The notes beneath the pieces are model-generated. The model saw only the letters and a list, made by a program, of their open reading frames with translations. It searched no databases and was not told where the DNA came from. The position numbers and the translations under genes were made by a program. This document shows positions 1 through 46,198 of a stretch of DNA of 64,000 bases, one piece after another. The DNA lies in assembly GCA_022561635.1 (NCBI GenBank), contig JADFQV010000001.1, positions 7,917 to 71,916 of the forward strand, written 5' to 3'. The stretch comes from Chloroflexota bacterium. GTDB lineage: Bacteria; Chloroflexota; Dehalococcoidia; SM23-28-2; RBG-16-64-32. Positions within the stretch are counted from its first letter, which is position 1, and each line of letters starts with the position of its first letter.

Positions 1-1
1 C

Positions 2-376
2 GTCCCGTTCCCGAACGCCCTGGGCGTCGACGACAGCAACCTTGACTGGCCCGGGGACCTGGACCGCATTCCGGTGCCGTTCAACAACGTCTGCGGCAAC
101 GTCGGCAGCTTCCACTTATGGTGCGACATGAACCTGAACATACCTTCAATCATGGCCGAGCAGGTGATCCCGCTATCGACGGTCGTCGGCCTGGCGGTGG
201 CGATTATCTATGTCTTATTTCGCGTCGGCTGGTTGCGCACCAAACGTGACCTCTTCATCGTCATGTTTACGGCGGTGCTGGTCTCCTACCTGGCGCTAGC
301 GATGGTTGGGAGCTTCTTCCGCGGTGAGGGTCAGAACCTGATCTGGCCGTGGGAGATCAAGGTAGACGAGGGCTAA
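2..376 (+). CDS. C-terminal part of a polytopic membrane protein, probably the cytochrome b subunit of the bc complex (5' end outside window)
   Basis: The frame is open from the window edge and the ORF-track Met at 74 is internal. Two hydrophobic helices lie directly upstream of the Rieske gene, with a 12 nt gap. Confidence 0.4.
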   Translation, partial: VPFPNALGVDDSNLDWPGDLDRIPVPFNNVCGNVGSFHLWCDMNLNIPSIMAEQVIPLSTVVGLAVAIIYVLFRVGWLRTKRDLFIVMFTAVLVSYLALAMVGSFFRGEGQNLIWPWEIKVDEG

Positions 377-388
377 ACGAGGAGCTAA

Positions 389-1111
389 ATGACCGACGAA
401 CCAGACCCGCAAGCTGACCTGCCCCAGGCGACGCCCGACCCGGCGCGCTCATTGGCCGTCGACACGCCCGTCGCCACGCCGTTGCCGAAACGCGAGCTGG
501 TCACACGCCGTATCTTCCTCCTGGGCGGCTTCTGGACCGCCATGGCCCTGATTCCCGTCGGCCTTCTCGGCTCGACGCTGGACTTCATGTGGCCACGCGG
601 CGGTGGCGGCTTCGGCGGGCCGATCAGCGTCACGCCCGACCGGATACCCGAAGAGGGCGCCGACCCGCTGAATATCGTCGAAGGGCGCTTCTGGCTCGTC
701 AACATGGAGCCCGGCCCAACGCCCTCCGGTGTGGCTACCCCCGGCGGACTGCTCGCGTTATACCAGAAGTGCCCTCACCTGGGCTGCAGAATCCCCTACA
801 CCCCGGGGTTCAGTTTCCGGGACATCAAGGGTTGGTTCCGCTGCCCCTGCCACGGCTCGACCTATACGAAGCGCGGCGGCGTCATCCTGTCCGGACCGGC
901 GCCGCGGCCGATGGACGTTTTCCCGCTGGAGGTGAACGACGACCTTAGCATCACCGTGCAGACGGGCCGCGACTTCGAGGGCACGGGCAGCGTCCTCAAC
1001 CCGCGCCTCTCCGCACCCTGGGAGGCCGGTGCAACAACACCCCTGCCCGGTGATCTGGAAAGCAGCGATGAGGGTGCCGAAGAAGAGGAAGAGACGCAGG
1101 ATTCCGCTTGA
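389..1111 (+). CDS. Rieske [2Fe-2S] iron-sulfur subunit of a cytochrome bc-type complex
   Basis: Both Rieske boxes are present: CPHLGC and CPCHGS. There is an N-terminal TM segment. The stop overlaps the next start (TTGA). Confidence 0.85.
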   Translation: MTDEPDPQADLPQATPDPARSLAVDTPVATPLPKRELVTRRIFLLGGFWTAMALIPVGLLGSTLDFMWPRGGGGFGGPISVTPDRIPEEGADPLNIVEGRFWLVNMEPGPTPSGVATPGGLLALYQKCPHLGCRIPYTPGFSFRDIKGWFRCPCHGSTYTKRGGVILSGPAPRPMDVFPLEVNDDLSITVQTGRDFEGTGSVLNPRLSAPWEAGATTPLPGDLESSDEGAEEEEETQDSA

Positions 1112-2277
1112 ACACCGCTAAGCAGATCAACATCATGATCGGCCTCATGATTGTGGGGCTCTTCGGCACGTTCCTGTACTTCATCTTCGACAACGGCTTC
1201 AACGCCTTCGGGCTCGATTTCGAGGGGCGCCAGAACGCAGCAGTCGTCCGGCAGGAGAAGACGAACGTCGAACGCGGCGCCGTGCTCTTCTCGCTCAACT
1301 GCCGGGCCTGCCACGGGCTCACGGGCCAGGGCGCACTGGAGCGAGCCGGGTTGCCGGGAGCGCCGCTGAACCTCGAAGACAACCGCCCGCCCGAGCTCAC
1401 AGAGGCTCAGGTCAAGGCGAAGGCGGACCGTTTCAACGGCACGATCACCTGCGGCCGTGTCGGCACGCTGATGCCGCCGTGGTCCAGAGACGAAAACGGC
1501 CCTCTCAACGATTTTCAGATCGAGCAGCTCGTCCTGCTCATCACGAGCGAGTTCTCCGAGGAAGGCTGGGAGCACGTCGTCGAAGACGGCAACCACAGCG
1601 ACCAGTTTGGCCCGCGGAAGCAGCTTGCCGCCGCCGTCGGACCGGGCGACACCACGATCCAGCTGAACGACGCGTCCGGGCTGATCGTCGAGGACGCGCT
1701 GAGAATAGGTGGCGACACGATCGACGAGGCCTACGAAGTGCTGATCATCCTCTCCATCGACGAGGATACCGGCAGCGTTGAGGTTGAGCGCGCCGCGATG
1801 GGCTCCAAGGCGCTGTCGCATGAGGCTGAGGTGGAGGTCTACAACGGCCCGCTGGCCCCGCCCGACGGCCCGATCATCGGCGCACCCGGTACGGTGCCGC
1901 CGTGCGGCCAGAAGAACGCCGAACCGGAAGCAGCAACAGGGTCGGCCGCTATCGTCAGCATCTCAGGCGATGTCGAGTTCAAGATGAGCGACAACTTCTT
2001 CGGCCTGGACGAGGCGATCAACCCGACGTTGGAGATCGCCGCCGAAGATATAGTGAACTTCACGATCCCCAACGTCGGCACGGCCATCCACAACCTGCGC
2101 TTCGCCGGCCCGGACGGCGAGTACCAGACGGACGACGACTTCGTTTCCGACCCGGACTTGATCTCGGGCGGCGAGGAAGGCACGCTGGAGTTCACGTTCG
2201 GCGAAGCGGCGACGTTCCCCTACCGCTGCGACTTCCACCCTACAGAGATGCTGGGCGAAGTCACGGTCACCGGGTAG
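1108..2277 (+). CDS. Membrane-anchored monoheme cytochrome c fused to a C-terminal type-1 copper (cupredoxin) domain
   Basis: TTG start overlaps the Rieske stop. It has an N-terminal TM helix and a single CRACH heme-binding motif. The C-terminus carries the H..C-x2-H-x4-M ligand set (AIHN, YRCDFHPTEM). Confidence 0.75.
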   Translation: MNTAKQINIMIGLMIVGLFGTFLYFIFDNGFNAFGLDFEGRQNAAVVRQEKTNVERGAVLFSLNCRACHGLTGQGALERAGLPGAPLNLEDNRPPELTEAQVKAKADRFNGTITCGRVGTLMPPWSRDENGPLNDFQIEQLVLLITSEFSEEGWEHVVEDGNHSDQFGPRKQLAAAVGPGDTTIQLNDASGLIVEDALRIGGDTIDEAYEVLIILSIDEDTGSVEVERAAMGSKALSHEAEVEVYNGPLAPPDGPIIGAPGTVPPCGQKNAEPEAATGSAAIVSISGDVEFKMSDNFFGLDEAINPTLEIAAEDIVNFTIPNVGTAIHNLRFAGPDGEYQTDDDFVSDPDLISGGEEGTLEFTFGEAATFPYRCDFHPTEMLGEVTVTG

Positions 2278-2336
2278 CCTGTGCCGGTTCCGGGGTTGTA
2301 TTCTCGACCTGGAAACGCCCCCCGGAGGTTCGTTGA

Positions 2337-2813
2337 TTGAGGCTCGCGCCCGCACTGTTATTGCTCCTGGCCGCCGCGCTGTTCGTTGCCGCCTGCGTGA
2401 ACGACGATGACGGTAGCGACGCCGTCGTCAGCGAAACGCCGAACCTCTTTCCCTCGCAGCCTGTGCCGCAGGAACAGCCGGACCCAGCCCAGGCGCTGGA
2501 CGCAACGCTGACCGAACCTGTGGACGGCGTGATCGAAGTGACGCTGCAGGACATCCTATTCTCGCCGAACAACCTGCACGTCCCGCTTGGCGAGGCGGTA
2601 ACGATCCGGCTCACCAACAACGACCCGGCGACGCACACTATGCGTGTCGCCGGCATCGACGGCCGCTACGACACCGAGGACGATGCCCTCGTGCCGGAGA
2701 TCGCCCCCGGCACAGTAGAGGAGCTGACGCTCGATGGCGCAGCCGCCGGGACGCTCACGTTCCGCTGCGATCTACACCCGGGCACCATGGGCGGCGTAAT
2801 CGTCGTCGATTAG
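2337..2813 (+). CDS. Blue-copper (plastocyanin/auracyanin-like cupredoxin) lipoprotein
   Basis: TTG start. Lipoprotein signal LFVAAC. Type-1 Cu ligands H (ATHTM) and C-x2-H-x3-M (RCDLHPGTM). Confidence 0.75.
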   Translation: MRLAPALLLLLAAALFVAACVNDDDGSDAVVSETPNLFPSQPVPQEQPDPAQALDATLTEPVDGVIEVTLQDILFSPNNLHVPLGEAVTIRLTNNDPATHTMRVAGIDGRYDTEDDALVPEIAPGTVEELTLDGAAAGTLTFRCDLHPGTMGGVIVVD

Positions 2814-2825
2814 CGCGACCTCGCT

Positions 2826-4476
2826 CTACTTGCGGCCGAGCGACTGCTTGCTCGGCCGGTCCCGCCGCTGATCGATCAGCTCGTGGCACTCGCCGTCGCT
2901 GATCTCGTAGACGTGCGTAGCCACCTGCTCAAGGATGCCCGGATCGTGGGCGGCGCAGATGATCGTGCCATCGTACTTCGCCAGCACCTCGATCAGCTTG
3001 CGGCGCGTCGTGTGGTCGAGGTGGTTCGTCGGCTCGTCGAGGACGAGGACGTTGGTCGGTTGCACGGTCAGCCGGGCCAACGCGACGCGGCTGCGCTCGC
3101 CGCCGGAAAGCGAGCGGATGCGCTGAAAGACATCGTCCCCGCGGAAGAGGAACTGACCGAGCACCGTTCGCAGACGCTCGTCGCGCGCCGTCGGCGCGGC
3201 GGTCCGCAGCTCCTCGAGGGGCGTCTTGTCCGGATCGAGAGCTTCGTCCTGGTGCTGGTCGTAGTAGCCGCAGCGGGCGAGCTCGGCCCACCGCACGCTA
3301 CCCTCCGTAGGTTGGATGTGGCCGGTGGCGATCTTGAGGAGCGTGCTCTTGCCGCTGCCGTTCGGGCCCACGAGCACGATTTTCTGTCCGCGCTCCACGT
3401 GCAGGTTCACATCAACGAGGACGACGTGGTCAGTCTGGCCGTCCGGGTCGCCCGCTCGTAGCGGATACGCGTGGCCGATGCCCTCCAGGACGAGCACGTC
3501 GTTCTCGGTACGGCCCTGAGCCTGAAGCCCGATGTGCACCTCTGACTCCTTGCTCGGCCGTTTGATGCGCTCGATGCGATCCAGCGCCTTCTGGCGGCTC
3601 TTGACCGCCGTAGCCTTCGTATTCTTGGCGCGAAAACGCTCGATGAAGCGCTCCTGCTTCCTCAGCTGGCTCTCCTGGCGGCCGGCTGCTTTGTCCAGCT
3701 GCTGAAGCTTGGCGGCCTTCACGCGCTGGTACTCGCTATAGTTGCCGTGATAAAGCTCGACCGCGCCCTCGCGTAGCTCCAGGATGCGATTGGCGACGGC
3801 GTCGAGGAACTCGCCGTCGTGGGTGACGATGAGCAGCGCCCCGTTGTAGTCGGAGAGGTCTTCCGCCAACCAGTCGCGAGCGGCTTTGTCGAGGTGGTTG
3901 GTCGGCTCGTCGAGGAGGATGTTGGCGGGGCGTCGCACGAGGACCTTGGCCAGCGCGATGCGCATCTGCCAGCCACCGCTGAAGGCGCCGCAATGCTTCT
4001 TGCGGTCCGGCACCGAGAAGCCCAGCCCGTCCAGCACCCGCGCGATGCGGGACTCGATGCGATAGCCGTCGAGGCGGTCGAACTCCTCGAAGAGCGCGGC
4101 CTGCTCCCCGATCAGCGCGTCGACGTCGCCATCCCCCGCGACGAGTGCGTCGGCGACTTCCGCCAGGCGCAGCTCGATGCGGCGGGCCTCCGGGAAGGCA
4201 GTCCACATCTCGGCGAAGAGAGTGTTGTCGCTCTCGACGCCCGATTCCTGCTTCAGGTAGCCGAGCTCACCCCCGCGGCCCTCGTGCGACTTGCCGGAGA
4301 AGCCCGCCCGGCCCTCGTCCGCCTCGTCCTCGCCGGCGATGAGGCGCAGAAGCGTCGTCTTGCCAGCGCCGTTCGGCCCCACCAGGCCGACGCGCTCGCC
4401 CTTGCCCACGGTGAAGGAGACGCCCTGGAGCACATCCAGGCCGCCGAACGATCGCGCTATGGATTCAGCGAAAAGC
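2826..4476 (-). CDS. ABC-F family ATPase (two tandem ABC domains, no TMD; EttA/Uup-like translation factor)
   Basis: Two Walker A motifs (GPNGAGKT, GPNGSGKS) and two signature motifs (FSGGWQMR, LSGGERSR). True start is ATG 4476 (MLFAESIARSF). The ORF-track N-terminal 150 aa is a spurious Arg-rich read-through that overlaps trxB. Confidence 0.85.
2833..2858. terminator. Perfect 9-bp GC hairpin (cggccgagc/gctcggccg) at the convergent junction of the cupredoxin gene and the ABC-F gene; possible bidirectional terminator
   Basis: Inverted repeat read directly. It lies inside the last codons of the ABC-F CDS, 20 nt past the cupredoxin stop. There is no U-tract. Confidence 0.4.
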
Positions 4477-4549
4477 ATCGTTATCCAGTGTATCGCGGCC
4501 GCAAGAACGCCGCCCCGAAGGACGGCGCTCACAACTTTCGCGGCGCTGG

Positions 4550-5527
4550 TTAGGCGGAGGCGGTGGCCTCGGCCGGTTCGGCGGAGTGCAGCTCCAAGTC
4601 CGGGAACTTGTCGGCGAGGTAGTGCTCGACGCCGATGGCGGCGGTGACGCCGTCGCCGACGCTCGAAGCGACCTGGCGGGCGCTGTTCTGGCGCACGTCG
4701 CCGGCGACGAAGAGGCCGGGCTGCGGCGTGCGCATCCATTCGTCGACGATGACGTGGCCGCCCTTGTCCATCGGGACGAGGTCGCCGACGAAGTTCGAGT
4801 TCGGGTGCTGGCCGATGAAGATGAAGACGGCAGCGATAGGCTTCTCGCTCTCCTCGCCGGTCTTGACGTCCTTCAGCTTCACGCCCGTCACCTGCTCGTC
4901 GCCGAGGATCTCGGTGACGATAGTGTTCCACTGGAAGTCGATCTTGTCGTTGGCGAAGGCGCGCTCCTGCAGGATCGCGCTTCCGCGCAGCTCGTCCCGG
5001 CGGTGCACGATCGTGACCTTCGTGACATAGCGAGTCGTGAAGATCGCTTCCTCGAGCGCCGCGTCGCCGCCGCCGACGACGATCGCCTCCATGTCCTTGA
5101 AGAACGCCGCGTCGCAGGTGGCGCAGTAGGAGACACCCTTGCCGGTCAGCTCCTCCTCGCCGGGGATGCCAAGCTTGTCGTAGTCGGCGCCGGCGGTCAT
5201 GATGATCGCCTTCGCCGTGTAGTCACCGTCGCTCGTGCGCACGGTCCAGAGGTCACCGGACTGCTCGATGCCGTTGACTTCGACGTAGGCCGTCTCCATG
5301 CCGTAGCTCTCGGCCTGCTGAAGCATCTCCTGCGCCAGGTCGAAGCCGTTGATGCTCTTGATGCCGGGGTAGTTCTCGACCAGCTCTGTGAGAGCGATCT
5401 GGCCGCCGATCACGCCCTTCTCTAGTAGGACGGTCTTGCGGCGGCCACGCGCCGCATAAACACCGGCGGCGAGTCCAGCCGGACCGCCGCCGATAATTAC
5501 GACGTCGTGTTGTCGGTCGTCAGCCAC
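4550..5527 (-). CDS. trxB: Thioredoxin-disulfide reductase
   Basis: FAD motif GGGPAGLAAG, redox-active CATCD and an NADPH motif. Directly follows trxA with a 0 nt gap. Confidence 0.9.
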   Translation of the reverse strand: MADDRQHDVVIIGGGPAGLAAGVYAARGRRKTVLLEKGVIGGQIALTELVENYPGIKSINGFDLAQEMLQQAESYGMETAYVEVNGIEQSGDLWTVRTSDGDYTAKAIIMTAGADYDKLGIPGEEELTGKGVSYCATCDAAFFKDMEAIVVGGGDAALEEAIFTTRYVTKVTIVHRRDELRGSAILQERAFANDKIDFQWNTIVTEILGDEQVTGVKLKDVKTGEESEKPIAAVFIFIGQHPNSNFVGDLVPMDKGGHVIVDEWMRTPQPGLFVAGDVRQNSARQVASSVGDGVTAAIGVEHYLADKFPDLELHSAEPAEATASA

Positions 5528-5854
5528 CTAGGCGAGAGCCTTGTCCAACGACTTCTTCAGTTCGCTCTTGGGCCGGAAGCCGACCACCTGCTCGACGGCC
5601 TCGCCGCCCTTGAACACCATGAGCGTGGGGATGCTGCGAATGCCGTACTTGGATGCCGTCTCGATGTTGTCGTCTGTGTTGAGCTTGACGAACTTCACCT
5701 TGCCGTCGTACTCCTCGGCCAGCTCATCGACGACTGGGGCCACCATCTTGCAGGGACCGCACCAGGGCGCCCAGAAGTCTACTAGCACTGGCGTATCGCT
5801 GGACAGGACCTCTGCATCCCACTCGTTGTCCGATACGTCCTGGGGCTTGGTCAT
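5528..5854 (-). CDS. trxA: Thioredoxin
   Basis: WCGPC active site; 108 aa. Confidence 0.9.
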
Positions 5855-5884
5855 GTGGATCCTCCTGCGGTTTCTACCTTGCGG

Positions 5885-5914
5885 TTGACTCGTTTGGTGA
5901 GCTTATGCTAGCAT
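5885..5914 (+). promoter_or_regulatory. Putative sigma-70-like promoter of csoR (TTGACT-18nt-TAGCAT)
   Basis: Hexamers read in sequence. The operator lies immediately downstream. Confidence 0.35.
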
Positions 5915-5929
5915 ACCCCCGAGGGGTAT
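5913..5929. promoter_or_regulatory. CsoR-type operator: 7-bp GC-rich inverted repeat ATACCCC-cga-GGGGTAT overlapping the csoR start codon
   Basis: Perfect palindrome read directly. It matches the known architecture of CsoR/RcnR operators (ATACCC...GGGTAT type). It sits in the 73-nt divergent trxA/csoR intergenic region. Confidence 0.5.
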
Positions 5930-6251
5930 GTCAATGGACACTGATACGAAGCAAAAGACCAGCGACGATCTGGAGCAGGACGTACAGGCCTTGCTCGCTC
6001 GTCTGCGCCGCATCGAGGGCCAAATTCGCGGCATCCAGCGCATGCTGGAAGAGGACCGCGTGTGCGAGGACATAGTGACACAACTAATGGCTGCGCGCAG
6101 CAGCCTCGACCAGGTAGGTGTGCGCCTCCTGGATCACCACGTGGAACGCTGCCTCTGCGATGACGAGTCGCCAGAGCAGCGGGTCCGCAACATGCAGCAG
6201 GCGCTCAAGATGTGGATGCGCATGGGCGCCCCGAAACAGCAAGACGCCTAG
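5928..6251 (+). CDS. csoR: CsoR/RcnR/FrmR-family metal-sensing transcriptional repressor (Cys-His-Cys, Cu(I)-sensor type)
   Basis: RIEGQIRGIQRML helix; ligand pattern C (RVCED) ... H-x3-C (HVERC). 107 aa. Alternative start at ATG 5934. Confidence 0.75.
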   Translation: MSMDTDTKQKTSDDLEQDVQALLARLRRIEGQIRGIQRMLEEDRVCEDIVTQLMAARSSLDQVGVRLLDHHVERCLCDDESPEQRVRNMQQALKMWMRMGAPKQQDA

Positions 6252-6324
6252 CGCCGGCTCTGGCGCCGCTCTCCTGGTAGGCCGACCGGTCAGTCTCTTT
6301 CGCTCGCAATCCCCTACTCTGGCG

Positions 6325-6332
6325 TGTATAAT
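6325..6332 (+). promoter_or_regulatory. Extended -10 element TGTATAAT for tetR (predicts a leaderless or near-leaderless mRNA)
   Basis: Perfect TGnTATAAT lies 13 nt upstream of ATG 6345. Confidence 0.4.
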
Positions 6333-6344
6333 CCGGCACGATTC

Positions 6345-6965
6345 ATGACTACCGCGCCAACACCCATCAAGCGCCGCCGCAGCCGTGAACAGACCCGCCA
6401 GCGGCTTCTCGACGCTGCTCTTCAGATTTTCGCCCGCAACGGCTTCGAACGCGCGACGATCGACGAAATCGTGCGCGAGGCCGGCTTCTCCAAGGGTGCC
6501 TTCTACGTCCACTTCGAGAGCAAGGAAGACCTCTTCTGGGAGATTCTTCGCCAGCGCATCGAGGCGCGCAAGGAGACCCTGCGGCAAGCCCTCGAACCGA
6601 GCGCCGGCATCGCCGAGAATCAGCGCCTCCTCCTTGAGGCTCTCTTCGAGGCTCCTGGCAGCGAACCGCTGGGCCCGGCCGTCTACTACGAGTTCATGGC
6701 CCATGGCATGCGCAACGAAAAGGTTCGCGCGCGCCTGTCCGAGTTCTACGCCGGCTGGCACGACTTCGTCGTCGATGCAATCAAGGTTGGCCGCGAAAGA
6801 CAGGTCATCCGCGACGACGTGGACATCTCGCTGCAGGCCTCGGCTCTCATGGCCACGTACGAGGGTGCGCTGATCCAGTCACAGCTGGCGCCCGAACATC
6901 TGCGCCTCAGCGGCCGCGTAACCGAGCTCTCGGAGCTACTCGCCGACTGGCTCGTCCGCCGCTAA
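6345..6965 (+). CDS. TetR/AcrR-family transcriptional regulator
   Basis: N-terminal HTH (RLLDAALQIFARNGFERATIDEIVREAGFSKGAFYVHF). Start moved to in-frame ATG 6345 because the extended -10 sits at 6325-6332. The ORF-track start at 6324 would lie inside the promoter. Confidence 0.75.
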   Translation: MTTAPTPIKRRRSREQTRQRLLDAALQIFARNGFERATIDEIVREAGFSKGAFYVHFESKEDLFWEILRQRIEARKETLRQALEPSAGIAENQRLLLEALFEAPGSEPLGPAVYYEFMAHGMRNEKVRARLSEFYAGWHDFVVDAIKVGRERQVIRDDVDISLQASALMATYEGALIQSQLAPEHLRLSGRVTELSELLADWLVRR

Positions 6966-7985
6966 AGCGGCTGCCGTCTGCGCCTGCGCCGGGACCGTCT
7001 GCTGAATCGCCTCCAGCATGCCTGAGCGCGCGGACTCCACCGCCACCCTCAGCGAGCTCGAGATCGCCTTGGCGTCGCTGCTGCCGTGGCCGATGAACAC
7101 GAGCCCCTTCGTGCCCAGGAGTGGGCCGGCGCCATACTCCCGGTAGTCTGTCTTCTTTCGCACCTGTCCGAACGCGGGCAGAAGCAGGACGCCAGCAGCC
7201 ATGTACCAGGGCCGGCTCTTGATCGCGCTCCGGATCTCGCCCATCACGTATTCCGCCATGCCCTCCATCGTCTTGACGACGACGTTGCCCGTGAAGCCGT
7301 CCGTGACGATGACGTCGGCCGTGGCGAACGGTAAGTCGCGCCCCTCGACGTTGCCGATGAAGTTGAGCGAGCTGGCCTTCAGCAGGTCGTACGCCTCCTG
7401 CGTCAGCGAGTTGCCCTTGCCCTCCTCCTCGCCGATGTTAAGCAGCGCCACTGTGGGGTTGTCGCGCTTCCAGACGCGTTCCATGTAGGCTGCCGCCATC
7501 TGCGCCCACTGCAGCATGTACGAAGGCCGTGCGTCGGCGTTCGCGCCCGCGTCCAGCAGCACGGTAAGTTGGCCGGAAAGCGGCATCAGCGCCGCGAGCG
7601 TCGGCCGCTCGATGCCGCGGACGCGACCGATGTACATGATCGCACCAGCCAATATCGCGCCCGTGTTGCCCGCGGAGACGAAGGCGTCTGCTTCGCCGCG
7701 CTTGACCAGCTTGAGGCCGACGACGATCGACGACTTCTTCTTCTGGCGGGCCGCCAGCGCCGGTGACTCTTCCATCGCGATCACTTCCGGCGCGTGCACA
7801 ACCGTGACGCCATCAGGGCGCGCACCGTGCTTGGCGATCTCGGCCTCCAGCACCTCCTGCGGGCCGACGAGCGCGACGCGCACGCCCAGGTCGCGGGCGG
7901 CTTGCAAGCCGCCGAGGACGATCTCGCCCGGGGCGTCGTCGCCGCCCATGGCGTCGAGGGCGATTATGGGGTCAGAGGTGGTCAT
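6936..7985 (-). CDS. plsX: Phosphate acyltransferase PlsX
   Basis: PlsX-family fold over the full length (MTTSDPIIALDAMGGD...). Its 3' end overlaps the 3' end of tetR by 30 nt (convergent). Confidence 0.85.
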   Translation of the reverse strand: MTTSDPIIALDAMGGDDAPGEIVLGGLQAARDLGVRVALVGPQEVLEAEIAKHGARPDGVTVVHAPEVIAMEESPALAARQKKKSSIVVGLKLVKRGEADAFVSAGNTGAILAGAIMYIGRVRGIERPTLAALMPLSGQLTVLLDAGANADARPSYMLQWAQMAAAYMERVWKRDNPTVALLNIGEEEGKGNSLTQEAYDLLKASSLNFIGNVEGRDLPFATADVIVTDGFTGNVVVKTMEGMAEYVMGEIRSAIKSRPWYMAAGVLLLPAFGQVRKKTDYREYGAGPLLGTKGLVFIGHGSSDAKAISSSLRVAVESARSGMLEAIQQTVPAQAQTAAALAADEPVGE

Positions 7986-7994
7986 GTCCGAGGC

Positions 7995-9197
7995 CTATCC
8001 CGAACCATCGAATTCATCCTTCATTCGTTTGCGAAGATCCGGGCTCAGGAGCACGTCGATGCCCGTCATCGCCAGTGCCTTTGCGCCGTCCAGCAAGCCC
8101 GCGTGACCCGACTCGCTCCGGGCGATCTCGCGGAACTCCTCCGTATGGATCGGCACGTCGGGCGGCGCGATCGAGATCGCCGGGTGGATGCCGGGGACGA
8201 CCTGGCTGACGTTGCCCATGTCGGTTGATCCCATCGAGCGCTTCGACTCTGGCATCACCGTCGTCCGGCCGAGGCCCTCGATGTTGTCGCGATAAGCCTC
8301 GGCGAGAGCCATGTTCGTGCGCATCGTCTTGTAGCGGGACTCCTCGCCCCACTTGTGGACGAGCTCGCAGCCGGTGGCCTGGGCAGCGCCCTCGAAGCAG
8401 GCGAGCACCTTCGGCTTCAGCGCCTCGTCCATGTACGTGTCTTCCTCGGTGCGGATGAGAAGCTTGGCCTTCGTGAGAGAAGGGATCACGTTCACGGCCT
8501 GCCCGCCTTCTGTGATGATGCCGTGGACGCGAGCGGAGTCGCGGATCTGCTGGCGCATGAGGCCGAGGTTCGAGAACGCAGCGACCATTGCATCGAGAGC
8601 GTTCAGGCCGGCCTCCGGGCGAGCGGCGGCGTGCGCTGCCTTGCCGCGAAACTCGATCTCCAGCTCAAGGCAAGCGAGCGCATAGGCGACGAAGGTGTTG
8701 CGGTTGCCGGGGTGCACCATCATCGCGCAGTCGAGGCCCTCGAAGGCGCCGCGGGAGACCATGTACACCTTGCCGCCGGCGGCTTCCTCGGCGGGCGTGC
8801 CGATCACAACCACGGTGCCACTACCGTCTTCCTGCAACAAGCTCTTGAGCGCGATGCCAGCCGCCGCCGCCGCCGTGCCGATGATGTTGTGTCCGCAGCC
8901 GTGACCGACGCCCGGCAGCGCATCGTATTCGGCCACGAAGGCGATGCGCGGCTCGCCACTGCCGTAGGTGGCGCGAAAAGCTGTCTCGATCTCGCAGATG
9001 CCGCGCTCGAGGGCAAATCCCTGTCCCTCCAGAAAGTCCGCGAGCATGGCGGAGGACTTGTGCTCCTGGAAGGCGACCTCGGGCGTGGCGTGAATCCGCA
9101 GCGAAAGGTCGATCAGCTCCTGCTTTCGCCCTTCGATCTCATCCGCCGCCCGCTGTTTGATGGCGGCTGCGTTCTCGCTGACCCGTTGCTTGCTCAA
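7995..9197 (-). CDS. M20-family amidohydrolase / aminoacylase (peptidase M20D)
   Basis: Metal-binding motifs (AEYDALPGVGHGCGHNIIG, GTPAEE). TTG start at 9197 is preceded by GGGAGGAG. The upstream 290 aa in the ORF track is a spurious extension. Confidence 0.8.
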   Translation of the reverse strand: MSKQRVSENAAAIKQRAADEIEGRKQELIDLSLRIHATPEVAFQEHKSSAMLADFLEGQGFALERGICEIETAFRATYGSGEPRIAFVAEYDALPGVGHGCGHNIIGTAAAAAGIALKSLLQEDGSGTVVVIGTPAEEAAGGKVYMVSRGAFEGLDCAMMVHPGNRNTFVAYALACLELEIEFRGKAAHAAARPEAGLNALDAMVAAFSNLGLMRQQIRDSARVHGIITEGGQAVNVIPSLTKAKLLIRTEEDTYMDEALKPKVLACFEGAAQATGCELVHKWGEESRYKTMRTNMALAEAYRDNIEGLGRTTVMPESKRSMGSTDMGNVSQVVPGIHPAISIAPPDVPIHTEEFREIARSESGHAGLLDGAKALAMTGIDVLLSPDLRKRMKDEFDGSG

Positions 9198-9272
9198 GAA
9201 ATCTCCTCCCTGACGGGATTCTAACGCAAGACGTGGACTGAGAGGCAGGCAGACGGTAGTCTTACGCTCCGG

Positions 9273-9788
9273 ATGGACCTCAAGAAGCATATCCGCGACG
9301 TCCCGGACTTCCCACAGCCCGGCATCCTTTTTCGCGATATCACGCCGCTCCTCAAGAACCCTGAGGCGATGCGAGAGGTCATCGACGCATTCACGGCGGA
9401 ATACCGCCAGGCCGAGCTGGCGGCGATCGTCTCGATCGAGTCGCGCGGCTTCCTCTTCGGCGCCCCGCTGGCGTACAACCTGAGCTTGCCCCTGGTTCCG
9501 GTACGCAAGCCGGGCAAGCTGCCGGCCCGCCGTATGAGCGTCGAGTACGAACTGGAGTACGGAACGGGCTCGCTCGACATCCACGAAGACGCGCTGAGCA
9601 AAGGCGACCTGGTCGTGATCGTCGATGATCTGCTGGCGACGGGCGGAACGGCGGTGGCCGCGGCCAAGCTCGTCGAGCTGCTCGGCGCGCGCGTGCACAG
9701 CCTCGCCTTCCTGGTGGAGTTGGACTTCCTCAGCGGCCGCTCGCGCCTGGAAAACTACGACGTCTTCTCGCTCGTCAACTACGAGTAA
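9273..9788 (+). CDS. apt: Adenine phosphoribosyltransferase
   Basis: PRT type-I fold with PRPP motif VVIVDDLLATGGT. 171 aa. Divergent from the M20 gene. Confidence 0.9.
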   Translation: MDLKKHIRDVPDFPQPGILFRDITPLLKNPEAMREVIDAFTAEYRQAELAAIVSIESRGFLFGAPLAYNLSLPLVPVRKPGKLPARRMSVEYELEYGTGSLDIHEDALSKGDLVVIVDDLLATGGTAVAAAKLVELLGARVHSLAFLVELDFLSGRSRLENYDVFSLVNYE

Positions 9789-9805
9789 CGGCCACCGCTC
9801 GTTCC

Positions 9806-9835
9806 TTGACACCTCCTCGACACGACAGATACCAT
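9806..9835 (+). promoter_or_regulatory. Putative promoter TTGACA-18nt-TACCAT driving the riboswitch leader
   Basis: Hexamers read in sequence. The same TTGACA-N18-TACCAT architecture occurs upstream of rpsL. Confidence 0.35.
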
Positions 9836-9862
9836 CAGCTAGGTACCAATCGAATAGAAACA

Positions 9863-9964
9863 CTCTCATCGAGAGCGGTGGAGGGAACGGCCCTGGGAAG
9901 CCCGGCAACCGGTCTCCGGACACGGTGCCAACTCCGATTCGCCCCCGGGCGAATGAGATGAGAG
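9863..9964 (+). ncRNA. SAM-I (S-box) riboswitch aptamer
   Basis: P1 is CTCTCATC...GATGAGAG. The conserved core is GAGAGCGGTGGAGGGAACGGCCC, then GAAGCCCGGCAACC, then GGTGCCAA, with a P4 hairpin (ATTCGCCC/GGGCGAAT). This is a near-consensus match to the S-box. Confidence 0.8.
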
Positions 9965-9975
9965 TGGAGCATGAG

Positions 9976-10001
9976 ACTTCTCCGCCGCGAGAAGTTTTTT
10001 T
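9976..10001 (+). terminator. Intrinsic terminator forming the riboswitch expression platform (acttctc-cgccgc-gagaagt + T7)
   Basis: A 7-bp stem is followed by TTTTTTT. This is the only clear U-tract terminator in the window. RBS GAGGAG at 10014-10019. Confidence 0.65.
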
Positions 10002-10026
10002 ATACCCGAGAACGAGGAGTAGCGCG

Positions 10027-11080
<1,054 letters not shown>

Positions 11081-11088
<8 letters not shown>

Positions 11089-11962
11089 GGCGATCCGCGC
11101 CGCGGTGATCGGCGGCAGCGGCTTCTACGAGATGGAAGGCCTCTCGGAGATCGAGACGTTGAACGTCGACACGCCGTTCGGGCCGACGAGCGACGCCATT
11201 ACGACGGGCGCGCTGGACGGCCAGAGAGTCGCCTTCCTGCCGCGCCACGGCGTGGGCCACCGCTTACTGCCCGCAGAGATCCCGGCGCGCGCCAACATCT
11301 GGGCGCTCAAGCAGCTGGGCGTCGAGTTCATCGTCAGCGTCAGCGCCGTCGGCAGCCTGCGCGAGGAGATCGAACCGCTGCACCTGGTCGTGCCGGATCA
11401 GTTGATCGACCGCACCAAGGGACGCGCCTCGACGTTCTTCGGCGATGGCCTCGTCGCTCACATCGCGTTCGGCGAGCCGTTCTGCTCTCACCTGAGCGGT
11501 GTCGTCAGCGACGCCGCGGACGAGACGGCGACGACAGTACACCACGAGGGTGCTCTGGTCGTCATCGAGGGCCCGGCGTTCTCGACGCGCGCCGAGTCGA
11601 ACCTTTACCGCGCGTGGGGCGCCGACATCATCGGCATGACAGCGCTGCCCGAAGCCAAGCTGGCGCGCGAAGCGGAGATCTGTTTCGCCGTGCTCGCCTG
11701 CTCGACCGACTACGACTGCTGGCACGAGGGCCACGAGGACGTGACCGCCGAGATGATCGTCGCCAACCTCCTGCGCAACGTCGGCGTCTCGCGACAGGCC
11801 GTGCGCCTGGCTCTGGGACGGCTGCCGGCGACGCGCGAGTGCGCCTGCAAGGACGCCCTCAAGGACGCGCTCGTGACGTCGCTCGACCTCGTGCCGCCAG
11901 CAACGAAGCAGCGCCTTGGGCCGATTATCGCGCGCTACGCCGGGCAGGCGGTGAGCGGATGA
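11081..11962 (+). CDS. mtnP: S-methyl-5'-thioadenosine phosphorylase (PNP/MTAP family)
   Basis: PNP-UDP fold (AVIGGSGFY, LPRHGVGH, IIGMTALPE). The start overlaps the mtnA stop. Confidence 0.85.
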
Positions 11963-12855
11963 CCTCCGTATCCCGCGAGCGCCCGACGGCGGCAGCGCGA
12001 GCCGAGTACCGCATCACGGAGCTAGACGACCCGGCGGTGATCCGGCGCCTTCTGGAACCACAGCGCGCCTACACCGCCTACGCGCTCGCGCAGCTCGACC
12101 CGCGCATGTTCCCGCGCAACAAGTGGTATCGCTCGGCCGGGCCAAACGGTCAGGCGTTACTCGTGCACTCGAAGAGCCCGCTCGGCAACGCGCTCTTCGC
12201 GCTCGGCAACGCAACGGCGCTGGATGCCGTACTCTCGCTGCACCCGGGACCGCGCTTCTCCTTCGGCAGCCTGATGCTGGAGCACAAAGCGATCGTTCGC
12301 AAATACTTCCTCATGACGCGGCCCCAGGTGATGCTGCGCATGACCGTCGAGAGCGACACGTTCCGGCCGGTGGAGGCCGACGCACAACGCCTGGCCACCT
12401 CTGACATCGCGGCCGTCAACCGCTTGTACTCGATGGAGGGCGGGCCGACGGCCTACCGCACCGAGCACCTCAACGACGCCGTCTACTACGGGATCTACGA
12501 GGGCCGGGATCTGATCTCGATCGCTGGTACGCACGTTGTCTCTGGCGCGGAACGAATCGCCGTAGTGGGCAACGTCTTCACTCACCCACGGCACCGCGGT
12601 CAGGGCCTGGCCAAGGCAACGACAGGCGCCGTCACCCGGTACCTGCTAGCGGACTGTGATTTCGTCGCCCTCACGGTTGAGGAAGAGAACGCAGCGGCCG
12701 TCGCCGTCTACCGCAGCCTCGGCTACGAAACGAAGTGCAAGCTGCACGAAACGCCTGTCGTGCGCAAGGAGCCCATCGGCGTGGTTAGCTTCGTCCGGCG
12801 CGCGATCGCCGGCTGGCGAGGCCGCGGCGAGGGCAGGAAGGTCGTCACGCGATGA
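11959..12855 (+). CDS. Two-domain GNAT-family N-acetyltransferase
   Basis: ATG overlaps the mtnP stop (ATGA). The C-terminal GNAT motif A is VVGNVFTHPRHRGQGLAKA. A ~150 aa N-terminal domain of GNAT-like size precedes it, giving an MshD-like architecture. Confidence 0.65.
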   Translation: MTSVSRERPTAAARAEYRITELDDPAVIRRLLEPQRAYTAYALAQLDPRMFPRNKWYRSAGPNGQALLVHSKSPLGNALFALGNATALDAVLSLHPGPRFSFGSLMLEHKAIVRKYFLMTRPQVMLRMTVESDTFRPVEADAQRLATSDIAAVNRLYSMEGGPTAYRTEHLNDAVYYGIYEGRDLISIAGTHVVSGAERIAVVGNVFTHPRHRGQGLAKATTGAVTRYLLADCDFVALTVEEENAAAVAVYRSLGYETKCKLHETPVVRKEPIGVVSFVRRAIAGWRGRGEGRKVVTR

Positions 12856-14182: not shown

Positions 14183-15466
<1,284 letters not shown>

Positions 15467-15481
15467 TTGCGAAAAAGAAAA

Positions 15482-15505
15482 GGGAACAGGCTTTCGCCTG
15501 CTCCC
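15482..15505 (+). terminator. GC hairpin (gggaacaggc-tttc-gcctgctccc) just after ahcY; U-tract-less terminator candidate
   Basis: 9/10 bp stem read directly. An A-tract precedes it and no T-tract follows. Confidence 0.3.
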
Positions 15506-15589
15506 AACCGCCAAGTAGCGGCCGCGCTTGATACCGACTCAATCATCAACTGAATGGCAGCCGAGAGCCACAAGGAGGAACGAAACCCA

Positions 15590-16792
15590 ATGACTATGAC
15601 GTTCATGAGCAGTCCCAGCCTCCTCGTCACTTCCGAGAGCGTAACGGAGGGTCACCCGGATAAGATCTGCGACCAGATCGCCGACGCCATCCTCGACGAG
15701 ATCATCGCCAACGACCCGGACGGCCACGTCGCCTGCGAAGTCGTGGCGACGACCGGCCTCGTGATGGTCATGGGCGAGATTTCAACCAGCCATTACGTGG
15801 ACATCACAAAGATCGTGCGCGACGTCATCGCCGACATCGGCTACACGAAGCCGGAGTACGCCTTCGACGCCCAGAGCTGCGGCGTCCTCGTCTCCGTCAA
15901 GGAGCAGTCGCGGGAGATTTCCGACGCCGTCGGCGAGGACGAAGGCGCCGGCGACCAGGGGATCATGCTGGGTTTCGCCTGCAACGAGACGCCGGAGCTG
16001 ATGCCGCTGCCGATCAGCCTGGCGCACGGCCTCTGCCTGCGCCTGGCGCAGGTGCGCAAGGACGGAACGCTCCCCTACCTGCGCCCGGACGGCAAGTCGC
16101 AGGTGACGATCGAGTACGAGTTCGGCAAGCCGAAGCGTGCGCACGCCGTCGTCGTCGCCGCTCAGCACGATCCCGACGTTTCGATGGATCAGCTCAAGAG
16201 CGACATCAACGAGCACGTTATCAAGCCCGTCATCGGCGACTGGATGGACGACAAGACGGAAATCCACATCAACCGCAGCGGGTCGTTCATCCTGGGCGGC
16301 CCGGCGGCGGACAGCGGGCTCTCCGGGCGCAAGAACATCGTCGATACGTATGGCGCCATCGGCAGGCATGGCGGCGGGTCGTACTCCGGAAAGGATCCGT
16401 CGAAGGTAGACCGCTCGGCCTCTTACGCCGCACGCTGGGTGGCGAAGAACCTGGTCGCAGCCGGGCTGGCGGATCGCTGCGAGGTCGAGCTCTCTTACGC
16501 CATCGGGCATCCGCAGCCGATCGGCGTCTCGGTCGAGACGTTCGGCACGCACAAAGTGAACCACGGGGCGATCGAGAAGCTCGTCCGCGATCACTTCGAC
16601 CTTAGCCCCAGGGGGATCATCCGCGACCTGAAGCTGCGCCGTCCGATCTACCGGCCGACCGCATCATACGGGCACTTCGGCCGCCTGGACATCGACGCGC
16701 CGTGGGAGGAAACGAACAAGGCCGACGAACTACGCGCCGCGGCAGCGAAACTCAGTGCCGAGACGCCGGCTGAGGAAGCGCAGCGAGCCTAG
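15590..16792 (+). CDS. metK: S-adenosylmethionine synthetase
   Basis: [16 protein letters not shown] motif. ATG 15590 lies 10 nt after AAGGAGG. The ORF-track start at 15554 has no RBS. Confidence 0.9.
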
Positions 16793-41546: not shown

Positions 41547-42488
41547 CTAGACGCCGGCGTAACTGTGCAGGCCGGAGATCCAGAGGTTGACCACGAAGTA
41601 CGTGAACAGCACCGCTCCGAAGCCGACCACGAGCACGACCGACGAGCGCGTCCCCGACCACTTGCGCAGGCCGCGCATGTGCAGGTAGACGCCGTAGATC
41701 AGTAGCGTGACGAGCGCCGCCGATTCCTTGGGGTCCCAGCCCCAGTAGCGGCCCCAGGCGCTGTTCGCCCAGTACGCACCCAGCGCGATGCCGCCCGCCA
41801 GCAGCGGGAAGCCCAGCGCCACGCTCTTGTAGCCGATTTCGTCCAGCAGCTTTGATTTGGGCAGGCGCTGGAAGCGGTTCTTCGCACCCTGCACGAGGTA
41901 CAGCACGCCCGAGGCAAAGGAGACGCTCAGCGCCGCGTAGGCGAGGATCATCGCCGCGACGTGTATCGCCAACAGGTCCGTGTTCTGCAGCGCCGGCACC
42001 AGCGGCCGCACGTCCGACGGGAAGTAGAGCGCCGCTACGACGAGGCCGGTGAGCACGACGGGCAGCGCAACGCTGCCAAGCGCCCGCGGCGAGCGCAGCC
42101 CACGGCTCCTGTCGCCAGTTCCCTGCCTGGCCACGTAGACCTGCTCGAAGATGGCATAGAACGCCAGAATCGCCGTCGCGAAGGCGATCGTGAACTCGTA
42201 CATGTTCGACCACGGGGCGTGATCGACGGCCTGCCAGCGAGCGAGAAGCGACACGGAGAGCAGGGCCAGCGCTGTCCACGTAGCGAAGGTTGCAAAACGC
42301 CCACTGACCTGAGCCCAGCCGTTGGCGTCGCTGCGCTCGATCGAGGCGACGGCCGGGCCTGCGCCGATCGGCGTCGCCAGCCGGCGCACGACGAGCCCGA
42401 GGCCGAGGGTGTGCGCCCAGTAGGCCATCGTCGCCACGGCGCAGGCGGCGATCGCCAGGTACAGGGTCGTGCTGGCGAGCGATTCCAC
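41547..42488 (-). CDS. ccsA: Cytochrome c biogenesis protein CcsA/ResC (System II heme handling, WWD domain)
   Basis: WGRYWGWDPKE tryptophan-rich motif. 8 TM segments. The overlapping 461-aa Arg-rich ORF is spurious. Confidence 0.8.
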   Translation of the reverse strand: MESLASTTLYLAIAACAVATMAYWAHTLGLGLVVRRLATPIGAGPAVASIERSDANGWAQVSGRFATFATWTALALLSVSLLARWQAVDHAPWSNMYEFTIAFATAILAFYAIFEQVYVARQGTGDRSRGLRSPRALGSVALPVVLTGLVVAALYFPSDVRPLVPALQNTDLLAIHVAAMILAYAALSVSFASGVLYLVQGAKNRFQRLPKSKLLDEIGYKSVALGFPLLAGGIALGAYWANSAWGRYWGWDPKESAALVTLLIYGVYLHMRGLRKWSGTRSSVVLVVGFGAVLFTYFVVNLWISGLHSYAGV

Positions 42489-45167: not shown

Positions 45168-45373
45168 CAGGACAGGAATTGTATCAGGCGGCGTCAGCCA
45201 GGCGGCGCGCTGAGGATGTCGAGGCGGGAAGTCATGCCACCAAATTTACCGGAAAGCCAATGCCACGGGCGCTCCCCTCGCGAAAAAGTGGAAGTGTACC
45301 GCAGTGTGGCAAGCTCTCAAAATAGTCCCCAATGCACGTAGACAGCACCGCCATGTCGTAGAATGGCTGCGCC

Positions 45374-46198
45374 ATGGAGCCACGACCCCAGCACGTCCAG
45401 ATTAGGGACAAGAGCCTCCGGGCTGTGGGCCAGTGGGCGCCCTTAGGCCTAGCTGCGCTGACCTTACTACTGTGGGTGGCCCTGGCGGGCCCTGCGATTT
45501 CGGCTGAGCTAGCATCGGAGCTTCGGCCTAACCTTAAAGCGCTGCCGGCAGACGAACTTCGGTTGGAAACCGATTCCGCCGGCCGTACTTATCTGCGGTT
45601 CAGCACGACTACTTGGAACGGCGGATTCGGACCCCTTGAACTCGTGGCCGGTGACAGAGATGCAGCTAAGCAGAACATCCACCAGCGGATCCATCTAGAC
45701 GATGGGAGCTACTATGACGTGCTGGCAGGAACGTTTGAGTGGCACGAGCAGCACGGGCACTTCCACTTTGAGGATTACGCCCTCTACACTCTTCAGGCGG
45801 CCGATGCGCCTGGCGCCTCAGAACGAACTAGCAGTAAGACCACTTTCTGCATCATCGACACCGACCGCATCAACCACAAGCTTCCGGGGGCGCCCAAGCG
45901 ATCCGTGTACAGGACCTGTGGTAGCGAGATTCAAGGCATGTCCGTCGGATGGGGCGACAGGTACCCGTACTACCTAGCTGGGCAGGCGATCGACGTGACT
46001 GATCTGCCCGACGGTGACTACCAACTCACGATCGAGGTCGATCCAAAGAATCGGCTCCTCGAGACGAATGACGCGGACAACACAAGTACCTTGAGCCTTC
46101 GCATCAGCGTGAGCGACGGGACGGTGGAAGAACTGTCTAATGGCGAGAGCGGGCCCGGCAACGGGAATGGACGGGGAAACGGACGAGGTCCTAGGTAG
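45374..46198 (+). CDS. Secreted lysyl-oxidase-like copper amine oxidase (bacterial LOX catalytic domain)
   Basis: Signal peptide. Copper-binding FEWHEQHGHFHFEDY matches the LOX WEWHSCHQHYHSMD box. KTTFCIIDTDRI matches the LOX SFCLEDT box. Local GC is visibly lower than in the flanks. Confidence 0.7.
   Translation: MEPRPQHVQIRDKSLRAVGQWAPLGLAALTLLLWVALAGPAISAELASELRPNLKALPADELRLETDSAGRTYLRFSTTTWNGGFGPLELVAGDRDAAKQNIHQRIHLDDGSYYDVLAGTFEWHEQHGHFHFEDYALYTLQAADAPGASERTSSKTTFCIIDTDRINHKLPGAPKRSVYRTCGSEIQGMSVGWGDRYPYYLAGQAIDVTDLPDGDYQLTIEVDPKNRLLETNDADNTSTLSLRISVSDGTVEELSNGESGPGNGNGRGNGRGPR

Follow-up and report, generated by a model that had tools for sequence, protein, structure and literature searches.

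Complexes built around a Rieske protein and a cytochrome b differ mostly in how the electron is handed on, whether to cytochrome c1, to cytochrome f, to a dihaem cytochrome c or, in archaea, to a separate copper protein without heme. Copper proteins stand in for cytochrome c in archaeal chains (PMC4122944), and in haloarchaea a halocyanin gene lies within a Rieske/cytochrome b cluster, and its product has been proposed to take electrons from the complex and deliver them to the oxidase (PMC3509893). In the Chloroflexia, the quinol oxidase known as alternative complex III (ACIII) has a membrane-anchored blue copper protein, auracyanin, as its acceptor; bc complexes have been noted in Chloroflexi genomes, and a table in the same paper gives the Dehalococcoidetes neither a bc complex nor ACIII (PMC5826079). 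We analyzed a stretch of 64,000 nucleotides (nt) from a bacterium of the phylum Chloroflexota, referred to below as the window, in which positions 389-2813 hold a Rieske gene, a gene for a cytochrome c fused to a cupredoxin, and a gene for a lipoprotein cupredoxin.

We read these genes as the downstream half of an operon of six genes encoding a b6-type complex III, whose electrons would pass from heme c to a covalently attached type-1 copper, then to one or more anchored cupredoxins, and then to an aa3-type oxidase; we give this reading a probability of about 60%. An earlier note on this DNA had proposed a bc-type operon with such a fusion, which would wire the complex to a copper carrier in place of a soluble cytochrome c. 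It was largely right, and its proposal on function is well motivated. It had also called the fusion unusual, which holds relative to the searchable literature; within the Dehalococcoidia-type Chloroflexota, however, sequence comparison indicates that the fusion is the rule and not a one-off, a complex III variant conserved throughout the lineage. The genes and domains concerned, with lengths in amino acids (aa) and with TM for transmembrane, are:

L085 3285-4064: cytochrome b6-type gene, 259 aa, on contig L085, upstream of the window
L085 4077-5057: whole subunit-IV-like gene, 326 aa, on the same contig
2..376, + strand: final 124 codons of the gene for the subunit-IV-like protein, which is truncated here by the window edge; encodes a conserved Cys pair and two TM helices at the C-terminus
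389..1111, + strand: Rieske [2Fe-2S] subunit, 240 aa (PF00355, E 9.8e-9)
1108..2277, + strand: cytochrome c/cupredoxin fusion, 389 aa; starts with TTG, in a 4-nt overlap (TTGA) with the Rieske stop TGA
1114..1194, + strand: N-terminal TM anchor of the fusion, residues ~3-29 (Kyte-Doolittle peak 5-31; helix 3-29 in the AlphaFold 2 (AF2) model)
1228..1602, + strand: predicted monoheme class-I-type cytochrome c domain, residues ~41-165 (PF00034, PF13442; CxxCH at nt 1300-1314)
1603..1857, + strand: six-stranded beta-barrel spacer in the structure model, residues ~166-250, without a cofactor motif
1858..1950, + strand: Pro-rich linker, residues ~251-281, holding PPC266GQ (predicted local distance difference test score, pLDDT, 57-69)
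1951..2271, + strand: predicted type-1 (blue) copper cupredoxin domain, residues ~282-388 (PF00127; loop CDFHPTEM at nt 2227-2250)
2337..2813, + strand: stand-alone lipoprotein cupredoxin, 158 aa (PF13473 Cupredoxin_1, E 7.9e-12; PF00127, E 5.3e-5)

The product of the subunit IV fragment at the window edge shares 77% identity with positions 203-326 of subunit IV (326 aa) from a related locus (L001). The upstream genes were found on contig L085, which is 99.84% identical to window positions 1-12000 and reaches 4.7 kb further upstream. Its gene order is a 40-aa single-helix peptide, the 259-aa cytochrome b, the 326-aa subunit IV, the Rieske protein, the fusion, the lipoprotein cupredoxin, and a convergent ABC-F gene, and the six-gene order recurs in the related loci L001-L036. 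The proposal of a Rieske/cytochrome b operon is thereby borne out, with 389-2813 as part of its 3' half and L085 and L001-L036 supplying the rest. Cytochrome b is 87-96% identical in nearly all of these loci, the fusion only 39-80%. The gene for the 40-aa TM peptide at the operon start is conserved. A scan of window positions 1-3200 for promoters and terminators gave no promoter-like sites, and terminator-like sites at chance level.

Compared with solved structures, the cytochrome b matched b6 of the b6f complex best (E 4e-51, versus 1e-32 for bc1 cytochrome b). In alignment with spinach and Chlamydomonas b6, the four histidines that ligate the hemes are kept (His86, His100, His187, and His202), and the cysteine of a YCLGG motif aligns with b6 Cys35 (FYC35LGG), the residue that binds heme ci in b6f (PMC3509893). 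The heme-ci cysteine position is present in this cytochrome b, and heme attachment there is predicted. Subunit IV matches PF00032 (E 1.1e-6 for the L001 homologue) and has APWY, a PEWY-type variant, as its Qo motif; the clade with an APWY Qo motif includes Chloroflexi among other phyla (PMC4122944). At 326 aa the subunit is about twice its usual size; it has two additional TM helices at the C-terminus and an extracytoplasmic insertion of ~110 residues in which four cysteines are conserved. With cytochrome b split into a b6 of about four helices and a separate subunit IV, and with a Rieske protein alongside, the complex is by sequence of the b6 type, the "green clade" of Rieske/cytochrome b complexes. 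No match to cytochrome f or cytochrome c1 was found for the third redox subunit; a class-I-type cytochrome c with an N-terminal anchor, joined to a cupredoxin, is encoded instead.

The Rieske subunit combines a twin-arginine motif (TRRIFL) with a single TM helix and ends in an acidic tail, and its cluster boxes are CPHLGC (residues 128-133) and CPCHGS (152-157, within CPCHGSTY 152-159). It matches both bc1 and b6f Rieske models of NCBIfam partially, at E ~1e-13 and in all cases far under the curated cut-offs. Orthologues 47-92% identical occupy the equal operon position across L001-L036. The Ser and Tyr of CPCHGSTY go with high-potential Rieske proteins, and the motif is compatible with acceptors of either the cytochrome c or the copper type.

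The fusion start, at the 4-nt TTGA overlap that the earlier note had described, is backed by a conserved N-terminus, MNTAKQ. The 389-aa length, the N-terminal TM anchor, and the single CRACH heme c site are likewise as that note had them, the sole CxxCH being C65-R-A-C68-H69. Candidate copper ligands are His328, Cys374, His377, and Met381, the last three in the loop C374DFH377PTEM381. The spacing C-x2-H-x4-M previously assigned to this loop needs correction, since both cupredoxins of the operon read C-x2-H-x3-M (CDFHPTEM and CDLHPGTM). Among 67 aligned homologues of 47-88% identity, Cys68, His69, Met122-Pro123, His328, Cys374, and His377 are invariant (67/67), and Cys65 and Met381 are each present in 66; conservation of the cofactor sites in this alignment lies far beyond chance. 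Met122 is likely the axial heme ligand. With one CxxCH, a distal methionine, and a helical domain at residues 41-165, the N-terminal half is by its sequence features a class I c-type cytochrome. The C-terminal domain, by its ligand set and modelled fold, is a type-1 cupredoxin, for which copper binding is predicted.

Pfam agrees with this architecture, Cytochrom_C (PF00034, 22.3 bits, cut-off 21.3) and Copper-bind (PF00127, 22.1 bits, cut-off 21.2) both being above cut-off in the fusion; PF13442 reached 25.5 bits, just below its cut-off of 27. Structure prediction likewise gave a cytochrome c and a cupredoxin domain, in an AF2 model built on the alignment with a pLDDT of 90.8 and a predicted template modelling score (pTM) of 0.71. 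The modelled order is a TM helix at 3-29, a helical cytochrome c at ~41-165, a beta-barrel at ~166-250 (pLDDT ~97), a linker at ~251-281, and a beta-sandwich at 282-388. The Pro-rich linker anticipated between the two redox domains is thus present at ~251-281, although it is not the sole joint, being preceded by the folded barrel.

Searched against the Protein Data Bank (PDB), a profile of the family matched plastocyanin (1pla, E 6.7e-8), amicyanin (1.3e-5), and auracyanin A (9.8e-4); rusticyanin also matched, as did the CxxCH region of actinobacterial QcrC (E 1e-7) and CcoP. Foldseek gave the copper domain a probability of 1.00 to cupredoxins (2dv6, 4hcf, 2aan, 6kol, and rusticyanin), the matches including the tethered cupredoxin of Hyphomicrobium NirK (HdNiR), a Bacillus Cupredoxin_1 protein, and auracyanins. 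Both cupredoxins of the operon have the generic His/Cys/His/Met ligand set, with plastocyanin, amicyanin, and the Cupredoxin_1 family as the nearest solved structures. Auracyanin was considered as the nearest characterised relative and rejected, as plastocyanin and amicyanin score better and its fold match is no better than that of other cupredoxins.

A search of 5.8 billion proteins returned 311 homologues of the fusion. Most of the best 120 cover at least 97% of the query, down to ~46% identity, and ~20 longer forms among them, of 512-588 aa with extra spacer modules, match the query in separate segments. Where a source is named, which is in few cases, it is Dehalococcoidia or Chloroflexota. 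When one genome per species was taken from GTDB, ~30 loci had the full-length gene, and each of them bears a Chloroflexota, Dehalococcoidia, or "Chloroflexia" label. With HMMER, an exhaustive scan covering 1.84 billion cluster representatives found 119 clusters (50% identity) at E <= 1e-30, and at least 38 of the best 150 cluster representatives have recognisable cytochrome c and copper domains. The independent contig L085 carries the same 389-aa open reading frame (ORF). A search of relatives with query residues 1-165 for a cytochrome c subunit without the copper domain returned mostly fragments on short contigs.

The barrel between the two redox domains keeps its quality when modelled alone (pLDDT 93.9). 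It has no match in Pfam or NCBIfam, and a profile search of the PDB gave only a phage tip-attachment protein at E 0.045. Foldseek matches are weak (E >= 6e-3, query TM-score TMq 0.6-0.69) and comprise phage tailspike, baseplate, and capsid barrels and the N-terminal barrel of F1/V1 ATPase; we treat the barrel, as modelled, as a structural module. Its copy number varies from none to three per homologue. Most have one; the barrel is absent from a 279-aa homologue (L036) and from fifteen cluster representatives of 280-310 aa, about two are present in homologues of 512-539 aa, and about three in those of 586-588 aa. In a sister branch, a 625-aa protein in the same operon place (L084 2754-4631) consists of a cytochrome c, LysM repeats, and a C-terminal cupredoxin, and the spacer can therefore be a peptidoglycan-binding module.

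Five cysteines occur in constant order in every architectural variant, namely the CxxCH pair, Cys115, Cys266, and the copper ligand. Cys115 is invariant within a T-C-G-R motif, seven residues ahead of Met122, and Cys266, Gly267, and Gln268 of PPC266GQ are invariant in all 67 sequences. The equivalent of Cys266 lies ~100-115 residues ahead of the copper cysteine whatever the spacer (none, single, multiple, or LysM). Because this fourth cysteine tracks the copper domain and not the spacer, we infer that Cys115 and Cys266 probably form a disulfide. Such a bond would pin the start of the copper domain to the loop that carries the heme Met ligand, with the spacer modules, beta-barrels or LysM, looped out.

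The lipoprotein cupredoxin gene starts 59 nt past the fusion stop, with GGAGG 8 nt upstream. Its product has a signal peptide that ends in a lipobox, VAAC, at nt 2385-2396 (MRLAPALLLLLAAALFVAAC20); the lipobox fits [LVI][ASTVI][GAS]C, predicting a lipoprotein, and is followed by an acidic linker with QPxPxQ. Its ligands are His100, Cys144, His147, and Met151 (C144DLH147PGTM151, loop nt 2766-2789). The first three align with amicyanin His53, Cys92, and His95; Met151 falls one residue later than the amicyanin methionine, because the loop is longer. That a second, stand-alone cupredoxin with a lipobox follows the fusion was correctly described before; the label "auracyanin-like" given to it does not hold, since plastocyanin, amicyanin, and Cupredoxin_1 are nearer, and its search against solved structures returned no auracyanin at E <= 1. 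The lipoprotein and the fused copper domain are paralogous (29-30% identity, E 5e-10 to 2e-9).

Of 28 informative loci, ~24 encode a lipoprotein cupredoxin after the fusion. Kept across these are the lipobox cysteine and a Gly/Ser/Asp-rich stretch after it and, in most, a QPxPxQ-like segment. In one locus (L007 7233-7655) a further free cupredoxin, of 140 aa, is encoded after the fusion and ahead of the lipoprotein cupredoxin; it shares 77% identity with the fused copper domain and, from its sequence, looks like a recent duplication of that domain. Elsewhere, a 1084-aa ORF (L078 4516-7770) has seven tandem type-1-copper-like motifs (C-x2-H-x2-3-M) and may be a multi-cupredoxin chain.

A candidate acceptor is found in a metagenome-assembled genome that carries the fusion operon in L010 and, in L055, the cluster ctaB-coxB-coxA-coxC. 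The CoxB of this cluster has COX2_TM and COX2 domains with CuA, and is without CxxCH or a heme c domain. Convergent to the oxidase cluster (L055 364-1368) is a gene for a protein that begins with a soluble domain, continues with three TM helices, and ends in a cupredoxin with the loop CDFHPTEM, as in the fusion. This oxidase-cupredoxin synteny also occurs in L049, L052, L053, and L056, the protein being 334-341 aa long with the loop CDFHP(T/D)(E/D)M.

In the mechanism that we propose, quinol would be oxidised at the Qo site with its APWY motif, and the Rieske head would pass one electron to the anchored heme c domain of the fusion, which would stand in for cytochrome f or c1. Given a Q-cycle, the heme c domain would be the Rieske acceptor, and the fusion a member of the complex, because this subunit is encoded after the Rieske protein and anchored beside it. 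The heme would then reduce the type-1 copper of the C-terminal cupredoxin within one polypeptide, and the copper would pass the electron to the CuA of an aa3-type oxidase lacking a heme c domain, either by way of membrane-anchored carriers such as the lipoprotein cupredoxin of the operon or directly. The net result would resemble a b6f complex to which one "plastocyanin" is covalently joined while a second is kept on a lipid anchor, and a diffusible cytochrome c would be unneeded. The lipid-anchored paralogue is a plausible lateral carrier. The Chloroflexota are generally held to be without an outer membrane, which would explain why every carrier is anchored. That the copper domain replaces a soluble cytochrome c is likewise plausible and agrees with the gene context, in that a fusion-bearing genome encodes a further anchored cupredoxin beside an aa3-type oxidase lacking a heme c domain.

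Several points weigh against this reading. The copper in the fusion is predicted, and its occupancy is not readable from sequence. Heme c and type-1 copper have overlapping potentials, and chemistry alone therefore does not dictate which centre comes first. One representative (P0188) is without the first cysteine of the extra pair, and the region around Cys266 is modelled by AF2 with a pLDDT of just 57-69. The operon is without the lipoprotein cupredoxin in L001/L008, L023, L026, and L027, and in two further loci (L011 5087-5560 and L012 5561-6037) the lipoprotein loop reads CDFFPGTM, with Phe for the second His ligand, making a normal type-1 site unlikely in those proteins; the lipoprotein cupredoxin is therefore not an obligatory redox link. 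Finally, no terminal oxidase was recognised by eye in the 64-kb window, within a set of 67 genes guided by third-codon-position G+C content (GC3), and so the acceptor is drawn from other genomes.

A broader proposal can be put forward tentatively. The entire link between complexes III and IV in an aerobic chain of soil and sediment Dehalococcoidia-type Chloroflexota could be a "copper wire" of type-1 cupredoxins, all of them anchored. It would start at a disulfide-stapled heme c-Cu module within the b6-type complex III and run, with no separate cytochrome c, via the lipoprotein cupredoxin, the TM-anchored cupredoxin beside the aa3 oxidase, or both, and the barrel or LysM modules would fasten the complex to the envelope or to a III-IV supercomplex.

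The copper domain could also be unpinned, a mobile shuttle on an arm made of the barrel and the Pro-rich segment that docks on CuA itself, possibly in a III-IV supercomplex, with the lipoprotein serving another branch (another oxidase, or a nitrite or nitrous oxide reductase). We consider this arrangement unlikely, although a low-confidence Pro-rich linker (pLDDT 57-69) and a spacer of none to three modules are what a reach-setting arm would lead one to expect, and the lipoprotein cupredoxin is dispensable in several genomes and without one His ligand in two. Fused second redox domains bridge to the oxidase in the actinobacterial bcc-aa3 system and in Rhodobacter cytochrome cy, which also speaks for a shuttle. 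The constant distance from Cys266 to the copper cysteine, however, fits a staple placed after the spacer better than a ruler, the tether past Cys266 is only ~15-20 residues long, and the pTM of 0.71 suggests domain packing that is at least partly defined.

Another explanation confines redox activity to the fused domain; the main task of the lipoprotein cupredoxin would then be to handle copper for, or help assemble, the fusion or CuA. Its absence from some operons and the Phe in L011 and L012 could be understood in this way, as could the gene for a CsoR-type metal repressor 3 kb downstream in the window, and cupredoxin-fold copper chaperones such as PCuAC exist. We regard it as improbable, given that the window lipoprotein and most of its orthologues have the full His/Cys/His/Met type-1 set, that the lipoprotein matches amicyanin ligand for ligand, and that on inspection its sequence is without the Met/His-rich Cu(I) motif of PCuAC.

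Electron flow in the opposite sense appears very improbable. The cupredoxins would then be reduced outside the cytoplasm, by a donor such as Fe(II), Mn(II), nitrite, or humics, and would supply a complex working in reverse through heme c, as in the uphill branch of acidophilic iron oxidisers. Rusticyanin-type cupredoxins act in this way upstream of bc1 in Acidithiobacillus (PMC10654088), and rusticyanin is among both the fold and the sequence matches. The window, however, is ordinary heterotroph housekeeping without lithotrophy genes, both cupredoxins are nearer in sequence to plastocyanin and amicyanin than to rusticyanin, and a similar cupredoxin is tied to the aa3 oxidase cluster, pointing to downhill flow.

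A last explanation, that two genes were joined by an assembly or frameshift error, could cite the only long-contig matches to residues 1-165 (L081 and L082), with their separate calls for a cytochrome c and a cupredoxin fragment. It is refuted by the data, since tblastn aligns residues 1-388 colinearly over ~1.17 kb on both of these frameshifted long-read contigs, on which neighbouring genes are broken too, L085 independently contains the 389-aa ORF, and more than 100 homologues, drawn from many studies, have the fusion at full length; separate genes in relatives, which the earlier note had named as the finding that would overturn the fusion, are thus not borne out.

Elsewhere in the window one gene bears on heme c maturation:

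41547-42488, - strand: CcsA/ResC-type cytochrome c assembly protein (PF01578, E 5e-41; WGWDPKE motif)

No ResB partner was found in the window, the CcsA/ResC-type gene not being beside one, and by eye the genes upstream of it resemble those of a PIG-L-type deacetylase and a glycosyltransferase. No other CxxCH protein occurs among the window ORFs listed, a list that omits part of a ribosomal-protein cluster. The CsoR/RcnR-type metal-sensing repressor (5928-6251, + strand; PF02583, E 5.5e-25) lies ~3 kb past the operon by thioredoxin and thioredoxin reductase genes, and may be connected with the provision of copper to the cupredoxins. A secreted lysyl-oxidase-like copper protein, of a family uncommon in bacteria, is encoded at 45362-46195 (+ strand; PF01186, E 7e-15). 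The window further contains an S-adenosylmethionine (SAM) riboswitch at 9863-9964 (+ strand; RF00162, 80 bits, E 3e-17), ~1 kb upstream of an ORF (10997-11959) that by eye is 5'-methylthioadenosine phosphorylase-like; further downstream, at 14183-16789, are S-adenosylhomocysteine hydrolase and SAM synthetase genes, also assigned by eye. A cytochrome P450 (61341-62636, + strand; PF00067, E 2e-25) lies near the window end.

In the full-text literature, subscription-only papers lying outside that search, we found bc complexes of Chloroflexi, halocyanin clusters of haloarchaea, and tethered NirK proteins, but no account of a Rieske/cytochrome b complex with a cytochrome c-cupredoxin subunit; NCBIfam has no curated equivalog model for the fusion. 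A heme c fused to a type-1 copper would add a further solution to the hand-on of electrons from these complexes, uniting in one protein carriers that elsewhere substitute for each other, and would offer a natural one-polypeptide system in which to study heme-to-copper electron transfer. It would also be a testable candidate for the link between complex III and the oxidase in aerobic members of a very abundant uncultured soil lineage. Several hundred proteins now named just "c-type cytochrome" or "plastocyanin/mono/diheme cytochrome c family protein" could receive a fitting annotation.

Among described systems, ACIII with auracyanin shares the phylum with the present locus, and auracyanins (2aan, 6kol, and 1qhq) are among the fold matches of the copper domain. 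The complex here, however, is of the Rieske/cytochrome b kind, and auracyanin is a weak sequence match to the fused domain (E 1e-3).

The haloarchaeal halocyanin cluster and Sulfolobus SoxM with sulfocyanin resemble the present operon in having a type-1 copper gene in a Rieske/cytochrome b cluster and a split cytochrome b, and the copper protein is proposed to connect the complex, as its acceptor, with a heme-copper oxidase (PMC3509893; PMC4122944). Those systems have no c-type cytochrome, whereas here heme c is kept and fused to the cupredoxin, the second cupredoxin is lipid-anchored, and the lineage is bacterial.

Subunit II of caa3 oxidase and the cytochrome c- or cupredoxin-tethered NirK proteins likewise place a class I heme c and a cupredoxin-fold copper in one polypeptide, with intramolecular transfer, and tethered NirK structures (2dv6, 6tfo, and 6hbe) are among the top fold matches of the copper domain. 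The tethering of a cognate partner is treated in PMC13324648. In these enzymes the arrangement belongs to a terminal oxidase or reductase with CuA or a catalytic type-2 copper, whereas here it would belong to a quinol-oxidising complex and have a type-1 electron-transfer site only.

Actinobacterial QcrC is comparable as a complex III subunit that joins a Rieske-accepting heme domain to a second redox domain, an arrangement by which a cell lacking an outer membrane dispenses with a diffusible carrier. The sequence similarity covers ~30 residues around CxxCH and is the best cytochrome match (E 1e-7), and the QcrC model NF050122 gives E 9e-5 with 21.9 bits, against a cut-off of 200. QcrC has two CxxCH heme c domains, whereas the fusion has one CxxCH, its second domain is a type-1 cupredoxin, and its anchor is N-terminal.

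Cytochrome b6f with plastocyanin offers a further parallel. The split b6 and subunit IV, the four histidines, the Cys35 position, the Rieske protein, and the small TM peptide are all shared; the same redox order would be expected, from a c-type heme to a type-1 copper protein, and plastocyanin is the best solved sequence match (E 6.7e-8). Unlike b6f, the complex described here has no cytochrome f, its heme c subunit being an N-terminally anchored class-I-type cytochrome, and the copper protein, soluble in the case of plastocyanin, is fused to that subunit via a beta-barrel and a linker. The copper loop C-x2-H-x3-M and the 326-aa subunit IV with its large insertion and extra helices differ as well, and the context is respiratory and non-phototrophic.

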